The notes: a model not told the origin generated them from the sequence alone. A stretch of DNA of 64,000 nt from Nitrosarchaeum sp. (GCA_965223865.1 OZ245020.1:448001-512000), one strand, 5' to 3'; positions 3,421 through 11,730 are shown, counted from the first letter of the stretch. A program made the numbers and translations.

Positions 3421-3948
3421 CTAATTTTGATGTAATTTTATGGCTAATTCTAAGGTACTGTCTACCATCTCTCTTAGCCTCTTCTTTGTGTCTTCTGAAA
3501 TACCATTATCTGAAATTGAATCAGTGGTAATAAACACGGCTTTTGGGTTTGCTATTATTCGAAAATATGATAATAATTGGGTAATTAGTGTCTGAACATC
3601 AATAAAACCTATGTTTCCAGCAGCCACAATTGTTATGCCTGCAACTTTTCCTTCAGTTTTTTTGTAATTTACATACTCAAATAGATTTTTCAGTGATGAA
3701 CTAAAAAATGAATTGTAAATAGGTGATCCAATCAGCCAAACATCTGCATCCATTAAATCATTGGCAGCATTTTTTGTTGCATCATTGTATTCTTCATCTG
3801 GTCCTCGATAACATTCAATTTGATCATCTGAAAGATTGATAAATTTCACATCAACACTTTTTGTTTGTATATATTCTACCACATACTTCATGATTAGAGA
3901 AGTGTTTGCATTTTTTCTTGGACTACCTGAAACAACTACAACTTGCAT
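3421..3948 (-). CDS. NADPH-dependent FMN reductase (flavodoxin-like fold)
   Basis: GSPRKNANT and SPIYN..SSSLKNL motifs. Confidence 0.9.
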   Translation of the reverse strand: MQVVVVSGSPRKNANTSLIMKYVVEYIQTKSVDVKFINLSDDQIECYRGPDEEYNDATKNAANDLMDADVWLIGSPIYNSFFSSSLKNLFEYVNYKKTEGKVAGITIVAAGNIGFIDVQTLITQLLSYFRIIANPKAVFITTDSISDNGISEDTKKRLREMVDSTLELAIKLHQN

Positions 3949-3996
3949 AATCCAAGCTATGAATCTTTGTATTTAAATTTCAAAAAAATTTGTAGA

Positions 3997-4009
3997 ACGG
4001 GCTTGGAGG
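3997..4009 (-). repeat. att site (distal copy of tRNA-Arg 3' end)
   Basis: identical to 10904-10916; followed on the minus strand by a T7 tract resembling the displaced tRNA terminator. Confidence 0.85.
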
Positions 4010-4137
4010 TTCTCGCCTTCTCCAGCATTCGAAACCTCTAATTTTATTGATTTTTTCAAGATTTTAAAGTACTATAATCACTATATTTTATAATGTTTTA
4101 GTTATTGCTATGTAAAATAAAAAATAGGATGTCTTTT

Positions 4138-5256
4138 CTATGATTCTGGCAAATTATAGTAGCCACGTATGTTATCGATATCTGTTTGAATCTTACCCTT
4201 TTGTTCTGATGATTCTGTCATGTCTAATGCAATATCAAACTGCTCTTCTGCTTTTTCAAGTGGTGCTTTTTCTATACTATACATGTAAGAGTAAGCTTCA
4301 CCTTGGCACATGTGCGAATTAATTGAATCAAATTTTGAACAATAATTTAATGCTATTTCTGGATGTTTATAAATCGCATTAATTGCTTTTCCAATCCATG
4401 CATTTTCTGTATTGAATTTGCCCTCGTATAGATCTATTGCATTTTGGTATTCCACTTCAGACTCTTCTGAGAAAGACTTTATCTGACCAAAGTTACTTTG
4501 TGCTTGTAAAGAACTTCCCATACCAATAATAGATAACATGTGAAGATACTGCCCTCGTTTCAAATGATCAGAATGCCAATTATTTGTATCAAATATGGTT
4601 TTTGCCTTGACGAATGTTTCATATGATTGAGAATATTGTTTCTCCTCATACTGATGATTACCCATAGAGATCAGATATTCCATATCGTATAATGCATTTG
4701 CACTAGCCCATACAGATACACCAACTATGAGTCCAGCAGATATGAGAGCCACAACAGAACCAATTATTAGATAAGATGCAACAGAAGAACCAAACATAGT
4801 AAATCCTGAGGTAATCTTCCCAGATACTTCTAACAATCCAATACCTGTAGCAATAGATGCAGCAAGTGCAATTGGTACTCTGTGTTGCAATATAGGATTT
4901 CCATAATCAGTATTGTTCTCTAATGCATAAAATGAGGTTGCTATTCTAGTATCATTATAACCAGTAGTAGATATTTCCCAATCTAGTCTATAATTTGGAT
5001 TATTTGGATCTGATGCAGGTGCTACAGATCCACTTATCAGCTTATATTGAATTGATCTTTGTATTCTAAATACATAGTCATATCCTTCTTGCTTTAGATA
5101 TTCTGAATCAAGCTTTTCTTTTTTTCCAGCATATTTTATTCTTGAAAATAATCGTTTTGCTGCGAATGGATCCTGTAAGTTTTCGTATACTGTCTTTTGT
5201 CGTTGTTTGACATCCTTATAAGTACAAGTAATTAAATCAGCACCCAAAACATCCAC
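4138..5256 (-). CDS. membrane protein with C-terminal TPR-like domain
   Basis: hydrophilic N-domain, two hydrophobic helices (about aa 128-185), TPR-like repeats (GNHQYEEKQYSQS, NAWIGKA, GEAYSYM, AEEQFDIAL). Confidence 0.65.
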   Translation of the reverse strand: MDVLGADLITCTYKDVKQRQKTVYENLQDPFAAKRLFSRIKYAGKKEKLDSEYLKQEGYDYVFRIQRSIQYKLISGSVAPASDPNNPNYRLDWEISTTGYNDTRIATSFYALENNTDYGNPILQHRVPIALAASIATGIGLLEVSGKITSGFTMFGSSVASYLIIGSVVALISAGLIVGVSVWASANALYDMEYLISMGNHQYEEKQYSQSYETFVKAKTIFDTNNWHSDHLKRGQYLHMLSIIGMGSSLQAQSNFGQIKSFSEESEVEYQNAIDLYEGKFNTENAWIGKAINAIYKHPEIALNYCSKFDSINSHMCQGEAYSYMYSIEKAPLEKAEEQFDIALDMTESSEQKGKIQTDIDNIRGYYNLPES

Positions 5257-5578
5257 CTTTGTTTACTGGTTTTTTCATTAATTTTTGAACAAATTCTCTG
5301 AAGTCAGATAAATAATCATCAAATGCGATAGACATATCGATAAACTTCTTTCCTTCATCTGTAACACAAAAGACAGGTTTTTTATCATCTTCACACCTCT
5401 CAACAAGTTCATGTTTTATTAAAATAGAAGTATCTCTACTAATTGAAGAAGGTAGTCTTCGTAATGAACGAACCATACAATCATTTGTATGAGGTCCTTC
5501 TTCTACTGCGAATAGTACCTCAAATGTAGAATTGTTTAATTGTATCTTTGAATCTGGTATTCTTCTTTTAGAAGTCAT
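5237..5578 (-). CDS. winged-helix transcriptional regulator
   Basis: SSISRDTSIL recognition helix and LVER...FCVTDEGKKF wing motif; overlaps downstream gene by 20 nt. Confidence 0.75.
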   Translation of the reverse strand: MTSKRRIPDSKIQLNNSTFEVLFAVEEGPHTNDCMVRSLRRLPSSISRDTSILIKHELVERCEDDKKPVFCVTDEGKKFIDMSIAFDDYLSDFREFVQKLMKKPVNKGGCFGC

Positions 5579-5584
5579 GCATTA

Positions 5585-5628
5585 TTAATCATAAATTCAT
5601 ATAAAACCATTTTTCACATATGTGAAAT
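5585..5628 (-). promoter_or_regulatory. 44-bp repeat copy 1: palindromic operator plus TATA box
   Basis: perfect palindrome TTTCACATATGTGAAA at 5612-5627; minus-strand TTTTATAT at 5599-5606, 21-28 nt before ATG 5578. Confidence 0.75.
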
Positions 5629-5688
5629 TTAGAGTAGCGTCACAACATTATAAAAACAATTTTTAAAGAAAAATAATAAGTGATTTTT

Positions 5689-5901
5689 TTACAATTGAGA
5701 TTTTATATTGTGCATTTTAAGCATTAATCCTCCTAATGTCCCACCTAACCCTATAGCCAAATGTGAGAAGATCGCTGATCGTTCATCAGATTCTACTAAT
5801 CCAGCTAGTATTAAAGACATCAAAAATCCACTACCCAATACTACTATGAGCAAATTGGTAAAATCATTATCCATTGTAATTTTGTTCTTTTTAGATTTCA
5901 T
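5689..5901 (-). CDS. small two-helix membrane protein
   Basis: 70 aa, basic N-terminus and two hydrophobic Gly-rich helices; lies between the two 44-bp repeats. Confidence 0.55.
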   Translation of the reverse strand: MKSKKNKITMDNDFTNLLIVVLGSGFLMSLILAGLVESDERSAIFSHLAIGLGGTLGGLMLKMHNIKSQL

Positions 5902-5962
5902 CAGTAAGAAAATAAATGTAAAAAAAATTATTTAATATTTTGTAACATATGTGAAAGTTTTG

Positions 5963-6006
5963 TTAATCATAAATTCATATAAAACCATTTTTCACATATG
6001 TGAAAT
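5963..6006 (-). promoter_or_regulatory. 44-bp repeat copy 2: palindromic operator plus TATA box
   Basis: exact match to 5585-5628; a third degenerate palindrome (14/16) at 5941-5956. Confidence 0.75.
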
Positions 6007-6395
6007 CATGCAAATTAATTTGGAGATGTCTTATTTTATTGTTGTATACAATTCTTATCTTGTAAATTCTTCTTAAACTTTCTACGTGATAGTTTTTAGA
6101 ATAAACTATATTCTATGTGTTTTTCTTTTCTTCAAATTTAGAATCATACTCAATAGATGGTCTTAACACATAATGCTTTGGTGACTTTTAGAGACTCTGA
6201 TCTAAGTGGCCGTTCAAGTTTCTATTGCTCTTACTTTCATGACAATATTTTCAACTTCTAGTTGTTGCAAAAATATCAGAAGATAATTGTTGAAGTATTG
6301 ACAAAATATAAAATAATTAATTTTCACTATCTACAAAAAAGGTATTATATTGTCTATATCTTAAATTTTAATCTAACAATATAATTCTAGATAAG

Positions 6396-7322
6396 GTGTA
6401 CGATCAAATCATCAGTATATTTCAAACCAAACCCCATTCTAGTTCAATCACGGCAAAAATAAAATACATTGAAAAAAACTTTAGAAATAAAACCCAAGAA
6501 CTACTTTATCACATAATCAGTATAGTAGAAGAATACGAAGAGATGGGCTACAACCTTACTGTAAGGCAAGTATACTATCAGCTTGTCTCACGTGATATCG
6601 TCCCTAACAATCTTGGTTCATACCAACTTACAAGCCGTGTCCTCAAAGATGCTAGAATGTCAGGACTAGTAGATTGGGATACAATAGAAGACAGGGTACG
6701 GCAGATAATTATGCCAAATGAGTTTGATGATGTAACCGAATTTATCACTGCTGCAATAAACTCATACAGACTACCAAGATGGAAAGACCAAGATCATTAT
6801 GTGGAGGTAATTGTAGAAAAAGAGGCACTTGCCGGAATACTGCGTACATTAACTAGTAGATACCATGTCCTTTTGCTTCCAAACAAGGGATACTCTTCAG
6901 CTAGTGCAATTCATGAGGCAGCTCAGAGATTCATATATCAAACATCAGAGGAAAAACAATGTCACATATTGTATCTTGGTGATCATGACCCAAGTGGGAT
7001 GGATATGGTACGAGACATACAAGACAGACTAGATGAGCTTTTGTGTACGGTATCAGTTGAAAAGATTGCCCTTACAATGGACCAGATAAAACAATACAAT
7101 CCACCTCCAAATCTTGTCAAAAAGTCAGATTCTAGGTCAAAAAAGTATGTCACTGAATATGGGGATAAATCATGGGAGCTAGATGCCTTAAAACCTGAAG
7201 TACTAAATGAATTGGTAGAGTCTAATATCAAAAAGTATCTTGATATGGAAAAATACGATGATATATTATCTCAGGAAAAACGTGAGAAACTGAGACTAGT
7301 TGAACTTTCTAATGCTGTTTGA
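6396..7322 (+). CDS. TopoVI-A/Spo11-like TOPRIM protein (Mini-A type)
   Basis: LTVRQVYYQLVS (5Y-CAP catalytic Tyr context), VIVEKEAL, YLGDHDPSG (TOPRIM E and DxD), WELDAL. Confidence 0.8.
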   Translation: MYDQIISIFQTKPHSSSITAKIKYIEKNFRNKTQELLYHIISIVEEYEEMGYNLTVRQVYYQLVSRDIVPNNLGSYQLTSRVLKDARMSGLVDWDTIEDRVRQIIMPNEFDDVTEFITAAINSYRLPRWKDQDHYVEVIVEKEALAGILRTLTSRYHVLLLPNKGYSSASAIHEAAQRFIYQTSEEKQCHILYLGDHDPSGMDMVRDIQDRLDELLCTVSVEKIALTMDQIKQYNPPPNLVKKSDSRSKKYVTEYGDKSWELDALKPEVLNELVESNIKKYLDMEKYDDILSQEKREKLRLVELSNAV

Positions 7323-7365
7323 GAATAAAATAGATAGTTAGTAGATTCCAAAATCTACCACCCAA

Positions 7366-7480
7366 CCAGTAACGGTTCACCAGTTCAGTTCACCAGAACA
7401 GTTCACAAAAAATGCCATATTCTATGTATTATAATAAAAAGTGTGGGAACTATACCGATGAACTGTGTCCATGAACCGGC
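7366..7480. repeat. phased inverted repeat array flanking an AT-rich core (origin-like)
   Basis: GTTCAC at 7375, 7388, 7401 and inverted GAAC at 7447, 7460, 7473; all spaced 13 bp. Confidence 0.7.
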
Positions 7481-7598
7481 ATAATTGTGATTTTCTTCCC
7501 ATATTCGGGGGCTATAGAGTCCAAGATCTTCTGAATCTTGTCTTGAGTGTCTTCATAGCACCAAACTTCAACTTTGGAGAACCATTTTAGATTCTTTG

Positions 7599-8891
7599 TC
7601 ATATTTGACTTGACCTGTTCTGGAGGGCTCGTATCTCTTGCGGTGATTCTATCTCTATTGCAACAGCATTTGCCACATCAAAACTCTCATTGTCCAGTAT
7701 TGGTATGGATATTGCATCTGGCTGCTCTATTATGATGTCTTGCTTTAGGACCTCAAAATAGTACGCATGGTCAAGATGGTGTCTTTTTGCCTCCTGAATG
7801 AGGAAAAATGACTCTATTCCCCCCTCACGTTGATTCTCAAGGACTGGATTGAACAGTTTTTCTAGATTGCCTGATAGGTTATGCTCTATTCGGGATGATG
7901 TTTCAGATGGACTAATTGATACTAATCCCATGTTTGCAAGATTTTGCAGTCGGATTTTGACATCAGCCTTGTTGACACCTGACATTCCTGCAATGTCAGA
8001 TAGACTTGGACGGTATGACTTGTTGTCTGTGTCCTGTCGGTTTTTGATTAGATTGTGCATTACTACGCATATTTTGTGATGTTTTGGTTTGTATTCTGCA
8101 AGACTAATAGATGTCATATTTAGAATCTTTTGACTCTTTTGGATGTCAGTTGGACCTGTTGGTTTTTGCCTTTGTTGTTCCTCTTTTATTTTTGCCCTAA
8201 TTGCGGTCTCTTGTGGTATTTGTATGTCCTCAGAAACAGAAGATGATGTCATTGTTTCTGTATTTTCATTGTTATCTATTTTCTCAAATAGCTTTTCTAT
8301 TCTGTCTACAAGTTCGTTGTTGTTTATACGACACATGTCAAGTGTTTCATTACAGTATCTGAATATTCGTGGAATATGCACATCTTCCATCTCCTTTTTT
8401 ACTGTTCTTTGCAGAAATTCACTTACCTTTTTATCCATTTTCAGAGTATCTGTAAATTTTGTCACCATGTCCTGAATAGAGTTTACATCTTGTCTGTGAT
8501 CTTCTCTCATTGATGTAGCTGTCTCTTTGATTGTAGTTACAGCCTGCTCTAGGTGTTCTGTAACTGAAGAAAGATTGTCTGAAAACAGCTCCTCTCCTCG
8601 TTTTGTTCCCCACGAAAATGTTTTCCACGATACTGCTCCGCATATGCCTGCTATTGCAACTGTTAGTACTGTATCTAGAGGCTGCATATCTACAATGACC
8701 TGTTGTACCAAAGGAGATATCACAATACCATTTACTACTGCGATTCCCAGTATTGTGAGAAATCGTACTGCATTCTCCTCAATTCTGATTCTCTGCATCA
8801 TTCCTGACTGGAGGGATCCTCCTATGGCAAATGGCAATCCAACCATACTGACAAGAGACACTATCAAAAGTATCATGTCCAATGGAGGCAT
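7599..8891 (-). CDS. membrane-anchored wHTH plus PD-(D/E)xK-like protein, apparently frameshifted near 7625
   Basis: 3 N-terminal TM helices, coiled coil, PSLSDIAGMSGVNKADV HTH, QPDAI...AIEIES motif; shifted frame continues to a stop at 7450; GGAGGTG SD upstream. Confidence 0.65.
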   Translation of the reverse strand: MPPLDMILLIVSLVSMVGLPFAIGGSLQSGMMQRIRIEENAVRFLTILGIAVVNGIVISPLVQQVIVDMQPLDTVLTVAIAGICGAVSWKTFSWGTKRGEELFSDNLSSVTEHLEQAVTTIKETATSMREDHRQDVNSIQDMVTKFTDTLKMDKKVSEFLQRTVKKEMEDVHIPRIFRYCNETLDMCRINNNELVDRIEKLFEKIDNNENTETMTSSSVSEDIQIPQETAIRAKIKEEQQRQKPTGPTDIQKSQKILNMTSISLAEYKPKHHKICVVMHNLIKNRQDTDNKSYRPSLSDIAGMSGVNKADVKIRLQNLANMGLVSISPSETSSRIEHNLSGNLEKLFNPVLENQREGGIESFFLIQEAKRHHLDHAYYFEVLKQDIIIEQPDAISIPILDNESFDVANAVAIEIESPQEIRALQNRSSQI

Positions 8892-9014
8892 TTTTACTGC
8901 TGCACCTCCTTCTGGTCATTCTTCTTCAGAGTTGTATTTTCTATTGTTTTTGTGTGATCTTTTTTCATGCAATATGATAAATGATTTGTATATAAGCGGA
9001 AAATTTTCCAATTT

Positions 9015-9407
9015 TTGCTTTTATACAAACCACAATACCATATTATGAAAGAAAATTGTTCAAATCAAAAGAAATCACATGCATTATTACTTGCAGAGCT
9101 AGATAGACTGCAAAAAATTACAGGCAATAACCAACAATCTGATCTAGTATGGTCTCCTCAAAGTGATTCGCAGATAGAGGGAAAAGTTGACGAAAACACG
9201 ATTACAATCTATTCTGAAAATATTGCAGATGCAATAGATACATTGCAACACGAGTTTGTTGACTATGTTATTAGTCAAGCAATCAAACCGTATATCAAAC
9301 TAGTAAATTTGTTGATGTCAATAATCACAAAAGATGCATATGAAACAAAAGAAGATGTAGTAGAATCATTGTTAAGATTAATGAATAATGATTCTACAAA
9401 AAATTAG
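9015..9407 (+). CDS. hypothetical protein with degenerate zincin-like motif (likely start ATG 9045)
   Basis: ITIYS...DTLQHEFVDY resembles HExxH with the second His replaced by Asp. Confidence 0.55.
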   Translation: MLLYKPQYHIMKENCSNQKKSHALLLAELDRLQKITGNNQQSDLVWSPQSDSQIEGKVDENTITIYSENIADAIDTLQHEFVDYVISQAIKPYIKLVNLLMSIITKDAYETKEDVVESLLRLMNNDSTKN

Positions 9408-9456
9408 TTGTTTCATTTTTGTTTTCTCACAATGACACGATTACGTGTTAATTCCT

Positions 9457-10863
9457 TTATCGGTTCCCACCCTTGACATATGTAATGTAATAATTGTTCA
9501 CATTTTTTATTATCTTTCCATCGTATTGTTTCTGTTGGATTTCGTTAGTAGATGTTACAGATGATGACATTGTCTTCATTATTTCTTGTCTTATTGCATC
9601 TGTTTCTTGTTCAATGTCAAAAATTATTTCGTTGTCTGTATCATTTGAATTATTAATTTTCTTTCTTTGTCTTTGTTTTTCAATCTTGATCTTTACAGGA
9701 TCAATTCCATATAACTTTGCTTGTTCTCTCCACATGTCAAGTAACATCTCTTTTTTGTTTTGAACAGAATTGCTGTTCTTACTATTTATGGTACACAGAA
9801 ACTGTTGGCTTTTAGAGTATGCACTTCTCATGTCTGAGATCATCTCATCAGTTAACCTTCCTTTGTTTGTAGTGTATCTTGCCTCAATGTCTCCCTTATG
9901 TCCCATAAAGAACTGTCTGTATGCATGAGTCATCTTTCCATGGCTTTCAGCTAATAGTAACTGAGTATCAAAGTATGCACGCAAGACATACGGTCTTGCT
10001 TTAGTTATGCTCCAGATTGCTTTTCTAATATCTGATGTAATTCGTGGTGTTGTGATTAATTCTGTAGATGATTTGAGAGTTTTACTTCCTCTTCTTGATT
10101 GATATCCTTGCTCCAAAGATATTACAGGTGAATTTTTGGTAAGGTTTTCGCCAGATGAGGTTCTTTTTCTCATATAGCCTAGAACATATTCGCATCCTTC
10201 TGCAGGCAAGAATGTAAAGTACTTATTTTTGGTCTTGCTTAGTGATGCTCTCACAGTAATCATTGCAGGTATTTGTGCAAAACTAACTGTTCTACCATCA
10301 TTTTCAATCACTAGATCATTCAAGTCAGCTAATTTGAGACCATCACTTGCGTCATAATTTCCCATTACTTGTGGTCTAATACCTGAAAATGCCATCAAAC
10401 TGATACTAGTTCTGGTTCTAGGATTTGCAACATTGAGGATCGACTGTAATTGTTCTTTGGTAGGTACCTGCTCGTCTTGTATGTTTACTGGTATTCCTGC
10501 ATTTGCAATTCTTATCTTTCTTTTTGGCTCTATGTAGTTGAAGACAAGCCATGATCTTATTGATTTGAGTATTCCATCGATATAGTTTGGTGCATAGTTT
10601 TGTGATTCAAGCCATGACACATGATCAAATAATATGTTCTCAAGCTTGATGATGTCTCTTTTTCCCATTTTTACAAGAAAAGATGGTGTAGTATTTGTCC
10701 TGTAACAAAATAGATTCAATCTGCGTAGTCTAATGTCTGCATTTAGCTTGCTACCTCTACTTGTGTTGTCATACCAGCGTTGTACATTTTTATCTTGCAG
10801 AAGAGCTTTTGTTGCAGATTTCTCCTTTGTTTTAGTAGACATTATTTTTCTCCACAATGTCAT
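9457..10863 (-). CDS. tyrosine recombinase / site-specific integrase
   Basis: SGIRP (R), SKTK (K), PYVLRAYF (xxLR), FMGHKG (H), ARYT (Y) catalytic set; adjacent to tRNA att site. Confidence 0.92.
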   Translation of the reverse strand: MTLWRKIMSTKTKEKSATKALLQDKNVQRWYDNTSRGSKLNADIRLRRLNLFCYRTNTTPSFLVKMGKRDIIKLENILFDHVSWLESQNYAPNYIDGILKSIRSWLVFNYIEPKRKIRIANAGIPVNIQDEQVPTKEQLQSILNVANPRTRTSISLMAFSGIRPQVMGNYDASDGLKLADLNDLVIENDGRTVSFAQIPAMITVRASLSKTKNKYFTFLPAEGCEYVLGYMRKRTSSGENLTKNSPVISLEQGYQSRRGSKTLKSSTELITTPRITSDIRKAIWSITKARPYVLRAYFDTQLLLAESHGKMTHAYRQFFMGHKGDIEARYTTNKGRLTDEMISDMRSAYSKSQQFLCTINSKNSNSVQNKKEMLLDMWREQAKLYGIDPVKIKIEKQRQRKKINNSNDTDNEIIFDIEQETDAIRQEIMKTMSSSVTSTNEIQQKQYDGKIIKNVNNYYITYVKGGNR

Positions 10864-10903
10864 ATTTGATTTGCTTAAAAGCAGGTCTCGGATCCTGGAG
10901 TAT

Positions 10904-10916
10904 ACGGGCTTGGAGG
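10904..10916 (-). repeat. att site within tRNA-Arg 3' end
   Basis: ACGGGCTTGGAGG identical to 3997-4009. Confidence 0.85.
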
Positions 10917-10998
10917 GCTTCGATCCCTCGACCTGTAACTTAGGAGGCTACCGCGCTATCCATGTTTCGCGTCAAAAATGACTCTGCGCCACAAGCCC
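10905..10998 (-). tRNA. tRNA-Arg(CCT) with ~19-nt D-loop intron (about 10965-10983)
   Basis: acceptor GGGCTTG/CAAGCCC; anticodon arm GTAGC-CTCCTAA-GTTAC; T arm GAGGG-ATCGAAG-CCCTC; insert AGTCATTTTTGACGCGAAA after position 15 forms a relaxed BHB. Confidence 0.9.
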
Positions 10999-11022
10999 AG
11001 AAAAAAAAATACTTGTAATTAT

Positions 11023-11730
11023 TTAAGCGTAATCAAGGTTGCTTTTGATCATTTCCTGAATTTCTTTCCAATCAGAATTGTCTTTTTGTTCCCATTTTTC
11101 AAAAAATACTACATCTTTAAGATCAAGTCTAGGAAGCCAACCTGCCTTTTCAAGATCTGGTTTTTCTGAAAACTCATCAACATATCCTAAACATAGATAT
11201 GCAATTGGAACAACATGTTCGGGTAGTTCTAAAACATCTCTAAGAATATCATTTGAAAGTATACTTACCCATCCAAGACCAACTCCTTCAGTTCTTGCTG
11301 CAAGCCATAAATTCTGAATTGCACAACAAACACTGTATAATCCAGCTTCTGGAATGCTAGATCTACCAATTACAAAAGGACCAAATTTTGATGGATCATA
11401 TGTTACACAAAGATTGACAGGTGATTCTAAAATTCCCTCAAGTTTGAAGGAAAGATATTTTGATCTTCTTGGTTCTTCGACTAGTTGTGAAGAACGGTTT
11501 TTTTCAATTTCAAAAGACTCTTTGATCTTCTTTTTTGTTAAATTATCTTTTATCAAAATGAAATTCCAAGGTTGAGAAAATCCTACTGAAGGTGCATGAT
11601 GCGCTGCATGTAGAATTTTTGATAAAATCTCATTTTCAATCGGTTTTGAAGTAAAATGGGATCTTACATCTCTTCGAGAATAAATAGCCCTGTAAAGACC
11701 TCTTTTTTCTTCTTCAGTGAATCCTGACAT
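11023..11730 (-). CDS. bluB: 5,6-dimethylbenzimidazole synthase
   Basis: RRDVR, APSVGFSQPW, LKLEGI and GWVSIL nitroreductase/BluB motifs. Confidence 0.93.
   Translation of the reverse strand: MSGFTEEEKRGLYRAIYSRRDVRSHFTSKPIENEILSKILHAAHHAPSVGFSQPWNFILIKDNLTKKKIKESFEIEKNRSSQLVEEPRRSKYLSFKLEGILESPVNLCVTYDPSKFGPFVIGRSSIPEAGLYSVCCAIQNLWLAARTEGVGLGWVSILSNDILRDVLELPEHVVPIAYLCLGYVDEFSEKPDLEKAGWLPRLDLKDVVFFEKWEQKDNSDWKEIQEMIKSNLDYA

Follow-up and report, generated by a model that had tools for sequence, protein, structure and literature searches.

A compact tRNA-Arg-integrated element of Nitrosarchaeum belongs to a Nitrosopumilaceae family with a fixed, Mini-A-containing backbone and a protein module resembling the C-terminus of TraG/VirD4-like ATPases

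We analysed a stretch of 64,000 nucleotides from Nitrosarchaeum sp. (GCA_965223865.1, OZ245020.1:448001-512000; hereafter the window, from whose first letter positions are counted) and focused on a 6.9-kb segment between positions 3997 and 10916, which an original prediction made from the sequence had taken for a small element integrated at a tRNA gene. The segment is bounded by an exact 13-bp direct repeat, ACGGGCTTGGAGG, with two copies in the window (3997-4009 and 10904-10916, spaced by 6,907 bp), whereas none is expected by chance, even when one mismatch is allowed (0 of 100 shuffles); the predicted attachment (att) repeats thus hold. Sequence inspection and the repeat count identify the proximal copy as the 3' end of a tRNA-Arg(CCU) gene (10905-10998, minus strand), which was the target and was left intact, and the distal copy, matching it exactly, as the displaced original tRNA 3' end. 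The acceptor stem of this tRNA (GGGCTTG/CAAGCCC) pairs properly and its anticodon loop reads CUCCUAA; the gene is intron-bearing, with an insertion within the D-loop. Its match to Rfam family RF00005 (10910-10975) reaches 26.9 bits, slightly less than the gathering score of 29 bits, and ARAGORN did not detect a tRNA-Arg(CCU) at 10905-10998. A nitroreductase gene stands beside the tRNA gene, an arrangement that is kept in relatives. The interval between the att copies is occupied by seven open reading frames (ORFs), an integrase gene and the six ORFs originally listed as cargo, all of which exist, and its GC content is in no way distinctive. As predicted, scans of all ORFs against Pfam, PHROG and NCBIfam revealed no capsid, Rep or conjugation-apparatus genes.

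Comparison with related genomes indicates that the segment was inserted. The right flank was searched in 41 of them, yielding 11 loci with which the left flank was then compared. In 8 of these (L004-L010 and L012) the flanks abut, the flank with the flavin mononucleotide (FMN) reductase gene lying no more than about 200 nucleotides from the tRNA flank. The tRNA-Arg(CCT)/FMN-reductase site is therefore empty in these loci, and the 6.9 kb are missing from most of the loci compared rather than being syntenic in all relatives. Of the remaining three, the first is devoid of the FMN-reductase gene and the second shows a gap of 1.2 kb; the third, in the closest relative (G004, flank 96% identical), holds a related element at the same tRNA. 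We are close to certain that the 6.9-kb segment is an integrated element of a conserved family.

The gene adjoining the tRNA (9414-10863, minus strand; ORF as it now stands 9457-10863) encodes a tyrosine integrase, as had been proposed, recognised by a fold match to XerA and Cre and by invariant residues. Neither Pfam, NCBIfam nor PDB gave a sequence match, and no Phage_integrase hit was found at E values up to 0.1; the protein and its 18-sequence profile returned only chance hits among PDB chains, and a precomputed Pfam domain was present on none of the 120 listed among its 2,525 homologues. In a Foldseek search with the AlphaFold model (mean predicted local distance difference test (pLDDT) score 69.7), the best-ranked matches were all tyrosine recombinases, first XerA (5hxy, E 3e-5) and then Cre and phage integrases; these matches have E values of 3e-5 to 1e-3 and a probability of 1.0, yet their TM scores are low (0.25-0.41). 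The residues R156, K203, Y285-x-x-R288, H315 and Y323 are invariant over the 18 homologues, and we infer catalytic roles for them, with a tyrosine (Y285) where histidine is usual.

Each att copy is followed inwards by a conserved recombination arm. The integrase-side arm (10838-10903), conserved in five elements at three different tRNAs, carries the motif CTCCAGGATCCGAGACCTGC on the minus strand at 10881-10900, and the distal arm (4010-4106), recognised by comparison with the ends of relatives, carries its inverted copy CTCCAGCATTCGAAACCTC at 4020-4038. The distal arm shares about 90% identity with the far end of a 31.6-kb element in G004, and the same arm is found at the far ends of two metagenome elements, L027 and L029. 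Both arms share CTCCAG.AT.CGA.ACC, inverted relative to each other and conserved whatever the tRNA. Integrase binding sites in attP would be expected to be arranged in this way, with an inverted motif on the inner side of each core copy; following excision, inverted integrase-type sites would flank the core on both sides. These arm motifs were absent from the original prediction, as were the late frameshifts and the 47-nucleotide repeats described below.

Three further genes and one non-coding block make up the remainder of what we call the backbone. Next to the integrase gene lies a gene for a small protein of about 120 amino acids (9045-9407, plus strand), whose true start is probably at 9045, corresponding to M11 in the alignment. 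The original prediction had called it zincin-like, a label that failed the motif test, since its invariant motif is H79-E80-F-x-D83 and not HExxH. In Atlas its score of 0.97 belongs to clusters of archaeal hypothetical proteins, and its sole peptidase leads, SprT-like (0.89) and M78 (0.86), are weak, both being below 0.9. The next gene (7450-8891, minus strand) encodes a protein with N-terminal membrane helices, a long helical, coiled-coil linker, a winged helix and a C-terminal domain; its homologues have 480-530 amino acids, and here it is split into a 430-aa and a 50-aa ORF, so that we refer to it as the 430-aa protein. It converges with the gene for Mini-A (6396-7322, plus strand).

Mini-A is a topoisomerase VI-A-like protein that combines a 5Y-CAP and a Toprim domain, and its gene appears to be intact. 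The predicted Mini-A-like TOPRIM protein could be assigned firmly (phrog_6247, E 2.2e-96), while the Pfam family TOP6A-Spo11_Toprim matched with an E value of 6e-4, under the family cut-off. Over nine sequences R57, Y61, E141 and D196-H-D198-P-S-G201 are invariant, and so are W260, E261, A264 and L265 of the signature W260-E-L-D-A-L265, which the window protein has as SWELDAL. Mini-A was defined by Takahashi et al. (2019, PMC7671362) through an arginine before the catalytic tyrosine, the Toprim glutamate with DxDxxG, and xWELDAL. The protein described here shares with theirs the length of about 300 amino acids, the RxxYY catalytic tyrosine, the Toprim E/DxDxxG and xWELDAL motifs, and the lack of an adjacent B-subunit gene. 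It differs in context: the text of that report places Mini-A in viruses and proviruses, whereas here its gene forms part of the backbone of an integrative element without a capsid and invariably accompanies the winged-helix/C-terminal-domain protein and a conserved iteron block. We found no paper tying Mini-A to Nitrosopumilus, though the archaeal context list of Takahashi et al. might include a thaumarchaeal case.

The iteron block (7365-7449) lies between the convergent Mini-A and 430-aa genes. It consists of four GTTCA(C) units (7365-7406; a 13-nucleotide unit repeated 3.2 times according to TRF) and a highly conserved stretch of about 45 nucleotides. The block is conserved across six elements whose proteins are only 44-93% identical, and it is nearly unchanged even where the 430-aa proteins share just 44-56% identity. 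Such strong conservation is indicative of a cis-acting site; part of the block may serve as a shared terminator. The two convergent genes with a repeat array between them, to which the original prediction had drawn attention, are the conserved heart of a family, the same order being found in related loci.

To delineate this family, we used the 430-aa protein (57 homologues) as marker and fetched 5 genome loci, 23 metagenome loci (L027-L049), which come from sediment-type samples, and the second copy that the host genome contains. The backbone order integrase, small HEFxD protein, membrane/winged-helix/C-terminal-domain protein, Mini-A was the same in four of the five genome loci (L017-L020), the fifth (L021) showing the last two genes only, and in 17 of the 23 metagenome loci, the other six being cut contigs compatible with this order. 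The suggested search for co-occurrence of the gene set thus led to a recurrent backbone. The second copy (L022, G000:C1:636000-655500) sits at tRNA-Arg(TCT) and has the complete backbone order; its Mini-A is 80-86% and its integrase 74-77% identical, and its 430-aa gene is split, too. The family is rare: of 269 genomes that represent the species of the taxonomic family, 8 contain it, and these belong to two genera. Its targets are tRNA-Arg(CCT), tRNA-Met(CAT) and tRNA-Arg(TCT).

Four elements could be delimited: the window element (6,907 bp, tRNA-Arg(CCT)), L027 (7,545 bp, tRNA-Met, 14-bp core), L029 (11,248 bp, at the same tRNA-Arg/FMN-reductase site as in the window) and the G004 element (about 31.6 kb, same tRNA-Arg). 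For L017, L019, L020 and L022 a distal att copy with an exact match of at least 10-11 nucleotides was not found within the fetched 13-17 kb, so these elements are longer or their cores shorter. The cargo of the G004 element includes an OLD-like ATPase-Toprim, a KAP/QatA-like NTPase, a multicopper oxidase, DsbD, thioredoxin, HtrA, a TRASH regulator and CbtA, among others; L027 carries a PsbP-like protein and a tetratricopeptide repeat (TPR) protein, and L029 a beta-propeller protein and uncharacterised ones. In the G004 element (L013, 5219-8380) the genes for the OLD-like ATPase-Toprim and the KAP/QatA/PifA-like NTPase adjoin Mini-A, which shows that the family is able to carry anti-virus defence cargo. 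The family therefore has a fixed four-gene backbone and freely variable cargo. Because the relatives differ only in cargo and share both arms, and because a 7.5-kb sibling exists, the compact size of the window element is its natural state and not a truncation. A far larger homologue, which according to the original prediction would have pointed to a deletion remnant, does exist in G004, yet its extra DNA is variable cargo, the window element keeps both arms and the whole backbone, and there is a relative of only 7.5 kb.

At the DNA level the window and G004 elements are about 80-84% identical on either side of the middle of the 430-aa gene (8177-8758), which is too diverged to align. The window backbone proteins are nearer to those of L017 (84-93% identity), which sits at a tRNA-Met, than to those of G004, despite the latter's use of the same tRNA. 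It follows that the backbone is mosaic and that the choice of target tRNA switches. One metagenome locus, L044, contains a second, distant integrase gene (10532-11545, 39% identical) about 6 kb past Mini-A, which may belong to a tandem or nested element. Eight metagenome contigs (L029, L033, L036, L038, L039, L042, L046 and L048) end 150-170 nucleotides upstream of the integrase start, in or at the target tRNA, a sign that assembly may stop at the junction created by integration because the population has mixed occupancy or tRNA repeats.

The 430-aa protein provided the link to conjugation. Searches with its full-length family profile against PDB chains yielded chance hits only; the C-terminal domain alone had no hit in PDB and only chance hits in Pfam at E values up to 10. 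Foldseek and VIA-align with the whole 483-aa model reported the winged helix alone. The predicted topology of the C-terminal domain (residues 410-478, pLDDT 74-89) is compatible with the alpha-beta-beta-beta-alpha-beta core of PD-(D/E)xK nucleases, in a region that had neither a Pfam nor a PDB match. An Atlas cluster with Replic_Relax on 12% of its members (score 0.86) was too weak a lead for this domain and was not used. When 1.84 billion representatives were searched with a profile built from the C-terminal domain, 70 proteins were retrieved. We scanned 40 of them with Pfam, setting aside the family's own members and shorter or weaker hits. More than half of these (23) are TraG/TrwB/VirD4/HerA-type ATPases of 400-1,370 amino acids that carry the domain at their C-terminus, several of them after a MarR-type helix; the other 17 had no ATPase match, and five of those (P0181-P0184 and P0213) show the same membrane-helix architecture as the element's protein. 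Aligned by hhalign with 20 such ATPases, the family scored 99.8% (E 2.3e-28) over 196 columns spanning the winged helix and the C-terminal domain, the match being restricted to residues 280-480 of the element's protein. The D, E-x-E and K positions are invariant in both the family and the ATPases (D395/E416/E418 corresponding to D986/E1001/E1003). By this profile comparison, the winged-helix plus C-terminal module is homologous to the C-terminus of TraG/VirD4-like conjugative ATPases, a relationship that is new here. What the element shares with the TraG/VirD4-type coupling ATPases of thaumarchaeal integrative-conjugative elements is thus the C-terminal 200 residues with conserved PD...ExE...K-type residues; where the ATPases have their ATPase domain, the element's protein has none and instead possesses membrane helices at its N-terminus and a long linker of helical structure. 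Accordingly, none of 33 family members matches the Pfam families TrwB, TraG-D_C and T4SS-DNA_transf.

The host genome itself encodes two full-length TraG/VirD4-like ATPases (1,054 and 1,058 amino acids) in two paralogous clusters (G000:C1:734308-737460 and 1600837-1604010; L023 and L025), both ending in a winged helix and a PD..ExE domain. The clusters have five or six genes in common; one begins beside tRNA-Thr(CGT), and the other includes a gene for a prepilin peptidase and has a DUF87-type ATPase at a distance of 10 kb. They are probably integrative-conjugative or secretion elements. A third, fragmentary copy of the ATPase gene is located at 1870459-1871896. Among relatives the ATPase is patchy, occurring in 9 of 41 and 49 of 269 genomes. 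Six of the eight genomes carrying the family had a match, compared with 43 of the 261 others (Fisher p 0.0006, which overstates the significance, the genomes being kin); within the larger genus, the figures were 4 of 6 carriers and 21 of 100 others (p 0.027).

The copy in the window bears two late frameshifts. Compared with G004, the integrase gene is one base short after an A-run at about 9500/9501, which puts the C-terminal tail out of frame; the displaced tail, GW..KEL..R, nearly invariant in homologues, is still encoded. In the 430-aa gene a 1-bp deletion at about 7624/7625 produces the 430-aa ORF (7599-8891) and the 50-aa ORF (7450-7602); the homologues of 480-530 amino acids read through this break, so that the small ORF represents the displaced end. 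Public contigs without gaps or differences span both breaks, that in the 430-aa gene in four runs (7424-7935) and that in the integrase gene in three (9033-9602). All four runs come from one study, possibly the source of the assembly, and the frameshifts are for that reason reproducible without being independently confirmed. Two joints in these contigs that skip the element represent empty sites of other strains, as they skip 6,954 bp or contain 16 foreign letters. In four runs (X2-X5) we also noticed a more abundant relative, whose flank (3554-4038) has 21 differences and a depth of about 240-510, versus 50-140 for the element, and whose contig extends some 40 nucleotides into the distal arm. 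Consequently, two or more strains are present in the sample, and one or more of these have a related element end.

The cargo of the window element occupies the side of Mini-A facing the distal att copy and consists of three ORFs on the minus strand, to which tblastn found nothing homologous in any of the 29 related loci. ORF1 (4138-5256, 372 amino acids) contains two hydrophobic segments by hydropathy and matches no Pfam, PHROG or PADLOC family; the TPR originally assigned to it did not show up in the Pfam scan, and ORF1 has no similarity to the TPR protein in the same position of L027. ORF2 (5237-5578, 113 amino acids) is a probable winged-helix regulator, judging from weak matches to MarR and HVO_A0114 (E 0.01-0.05) and to PHROG transcription regulators (E 0.016). 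ORF3 (5689-5901, 70 amino acids) has one hydrophobic helix. A repeat search revealed a 47-nucleotide repeat just upstream of ORF2 (5582-5628) and, 98% identical, upstream of ORF3 (5960-6006), both copies including the 16-bp palindrome TTTCACATATGTGAAA; a motif scan added a third, degenerate palindrome at 5941-5956. These three matches in the window compare with 0.14 expected. The palindromes upstream of ORF2 and ORF3 look like the paired operators of an autoregulated switch, by analogy. None was found in the 49 fetched loci, and the palindrome therefore belongs to the private cargo arm of the window element.

How could such an element move? The comparisons above bear directly on integration, and what follows for excision through mobilisation is a mechanism that we infer. 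Excision by the integrase would release a 6.9-kb circle. Resident conjugative elements of the TraG type would move this circle, the element itself lacking a transfer apparatus. The membrane-anchored winged-helix/C-terminal-domain protein would act as an adaptor that binds the iteron block and presents the DNA, and Mini-A, with its tyrosine and Toprim cleavage chemistry, would cut at this block. Our best reading is that of an integrative, probably mobilisable element. The original idea of a mobilisable mini-element has gained new support from the module that the 430-aa protein has in common with TraG/VirD4-like ATPases, two of which the host encodes, and stays a proposal. Mobilisation by resident conjugative systems is tentative, and we are somewhat inclined to doubt it. 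The overall account, in which the window holds a compact, impaired member of a recurrent tRNA-integrating Nitrosopumilaceae family mobilised via conjugative elements, appears to us about as likely to be right as wrong. A bolder version, which we consider unlikely, would make these the first recognised archaeal integrative mobilisable elements, with the shared winged-helix plus PD..ExE part as the module for both substrate recognition and nicking and with Mini-A, which like a relaxase would form a 5'-phosphotyrosyl link, cutting the iteron block to start transfer.

Several observations weigh against mobilisation as set out here. The nuclease nature of the C-terminal domain is putative, as the domain has no sequence match in Pfam or PDB. 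No relaxase family was matched in the Pfam and NCBIfam scans of the element ORFs, and Mini-A and the iteron block are candidates only for the roles of relaxase and origin of transfer (oriT). The conjugative role of the host TraG-like ATPases is itself presumed: in a crude hydropathy scan these proteins lack N-terminal membrane helices, and there is no Pfam hit to VirB4 within their clusters. Two of the eight carriers (G151 and G166) have no ATPase match, and two that were counted among the six (G129 and G196) have partial or stop-bearing matches only. Genomes rich in mobile DNA could hold both the element and the ATPase without any mutual dependence. As to the impairment of the window copy, both frameshifted proteins may still function, the catalytic tyrosine of the integrase lying upstream of the break. 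Neither an attP or circle joint nor a precise 6,907-bp skip was present in public contigs, which drop rare forms and are uninformative on excision. A predicted complex of Mini-A with residues 255-483 of its partner scored 0.00, which speaks neither for nor against binding.

The same anatomy admits other readings. The excised circle might replicate by itself as an integrative cryptic plasmid that requires no helper for maintenance, with the iteron block as origin, the winged-helix protein as a membrane-anchored initiator or partition factor and Mini-A as DNA-breaking or topology enzyme. GTTCA iterons and a conserved block beside a DNA-binding protein do resemble iteron origins, the winged helix weakly matches a PHROG 'replication initiation protein' (E 0.013), and Krupovic et al. 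(2019, PMC6563490) regard winged-helix proteins as possible initiators in small cryptic elements. We nevertheless consider a plasmid rather unlikely, as neither a Rep fold nor a polymerase, primase or helicase turned up in the ORF scans, the ends of whole contigs in the set of 23 metagenome loci never overlap by 15 nucleotides or more, the sole whole contig with both ends (L027) is integrated, and the DNA-binding module is homologous to conjugative ATPases and not to Rep proteins. A viral origin is suggested by Mini-A, whose top family match is a PHROG and whose reported viral and proviral contexts (PMC7671362) point away from conjugative mobilisation; the element would then be a satellite or provirus remnant packaged by a helper virus, and Mini-A a viral genome-processing gene. 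With no capsid, portal, terminase or other hallmark in the window, 31.6-kb, 11.2-kb and 7.5-kb elements, and no locus in 2.9 million viral contigs searched with the family marker protein, this origin is very unlikely, and the satellite proposed in the original prediction finds no support. Toprim nucleases are common in defence systems, and in the G004 relative OLD-like and KAP/QatA-like defence genes stand directly next to Mini-A. Mini-A and the membrane/winged-helix/nuclease-like protein might form a defence or addiction module in a genomic island that moves by its integrase alone. However, this pair is invariant while all else varies, being the only constant part besides the integrase, whereas defence cargo normally turns over; it is accompanied by a conserved cis-acting non-coding block, and no PADLOC model matches any backbone gene. 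We regard a defence island as quite improbable.

The most serious contender concerns the window copy only and is compatible with the mobilisable family proposed above. It might be an immobile fossil, a dead copy retained because excision failed, in which case its anatomy would be silent on current function; we give this slightly less than an even chance. Frameshifts in two of the four backbone genes, the split 430-aa gene in the second copy of the same genome and the lack of an excision joint in public contigs fit this possibility, yet both att copies are exact, both arms match those of intact relatives, and Mini-A and the small protein are intact. Moreover, the frameshifts are single-base changes near 3' ends, and any decay is thus recent. 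Of the decayed remnant in the original prediction, then, the decay has found support in the two frameshifted backbone genes, and a simple deletion remnant has not, both arms being kept. Impairment of the window copy is a reasonably likely outcome, and the copy is probably either impaired or already fixed in place.

Within the known diversity of archaeal mobile DNA, we file the element as a cryptic integrated element (CIE) of a new, backbone-defined family, of which we found no printed description. The thaumarchaeal CIEs of Krupovic et al. (2019, PMC6563490) likewise integrate at tRNA 3' ends with short att sequences (median 17 bp, some 8-13 bp), range from 2.6 to 98 kb with the integrase as sole universal gene, include small tRNA-Arg elements of 5.4-5.5 kb, and carry metal and multicopper-oxidase cargo, resembling the G004 element in this respect. 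The features that define them are present here, namely direct repeats with one copy in the target gene, an empty site, an integrase and no viral or conjugation genes. Among the tRNA-Arg rows of their Table S2 (n = 7), none has the anticodon CCT or this att sequence; their main text mentions neither Mini-A nor Toprim and states that such elements have no signature genes, in contrast to the four-gene backbone found here. The element also resembles bacterial integrative mobilisable elements as described by Guedon et al. (2017, PMC5704250), which are small, have their own integrase and att sites, lack mating-pore genes, share their genome with a conjugative system (here a presumed one) and in some cases have genes related to the coupling machinery of the helper. 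It differs from them in its archaeal host and in that no canonical relaxase or oriT was recognised. Our literature search revealed no integrative mobilisable element in archaea.

As an insertion the element is unremarkable, since small tRNA-integrated cryptic elements of ammonia-oxidising archaea have already been catalogued. The fixed backbone is notable against the 2019 catalogue, according to which signature genes are lacking in elements of this kind. Mini-A, an orphan relative of topoisomerase VI and Spo11, stands here in a non-viral setting with a constant partner gene and a conserved DNA site, which together offer a concrete substrate for testing this protein. Thaumarchaeal and Sulfolobus conjugative elements are reported to have no recognisable relaxase (PMC6563490; PMC9905601), and the shared module and Mini-A are therefore testable candidates for the missing step. 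Should the bolder version of the mechanism, which we consider unlikely, be true, the DNA-processing step that is missing from archaeal conjugation would come to light in this backbone.

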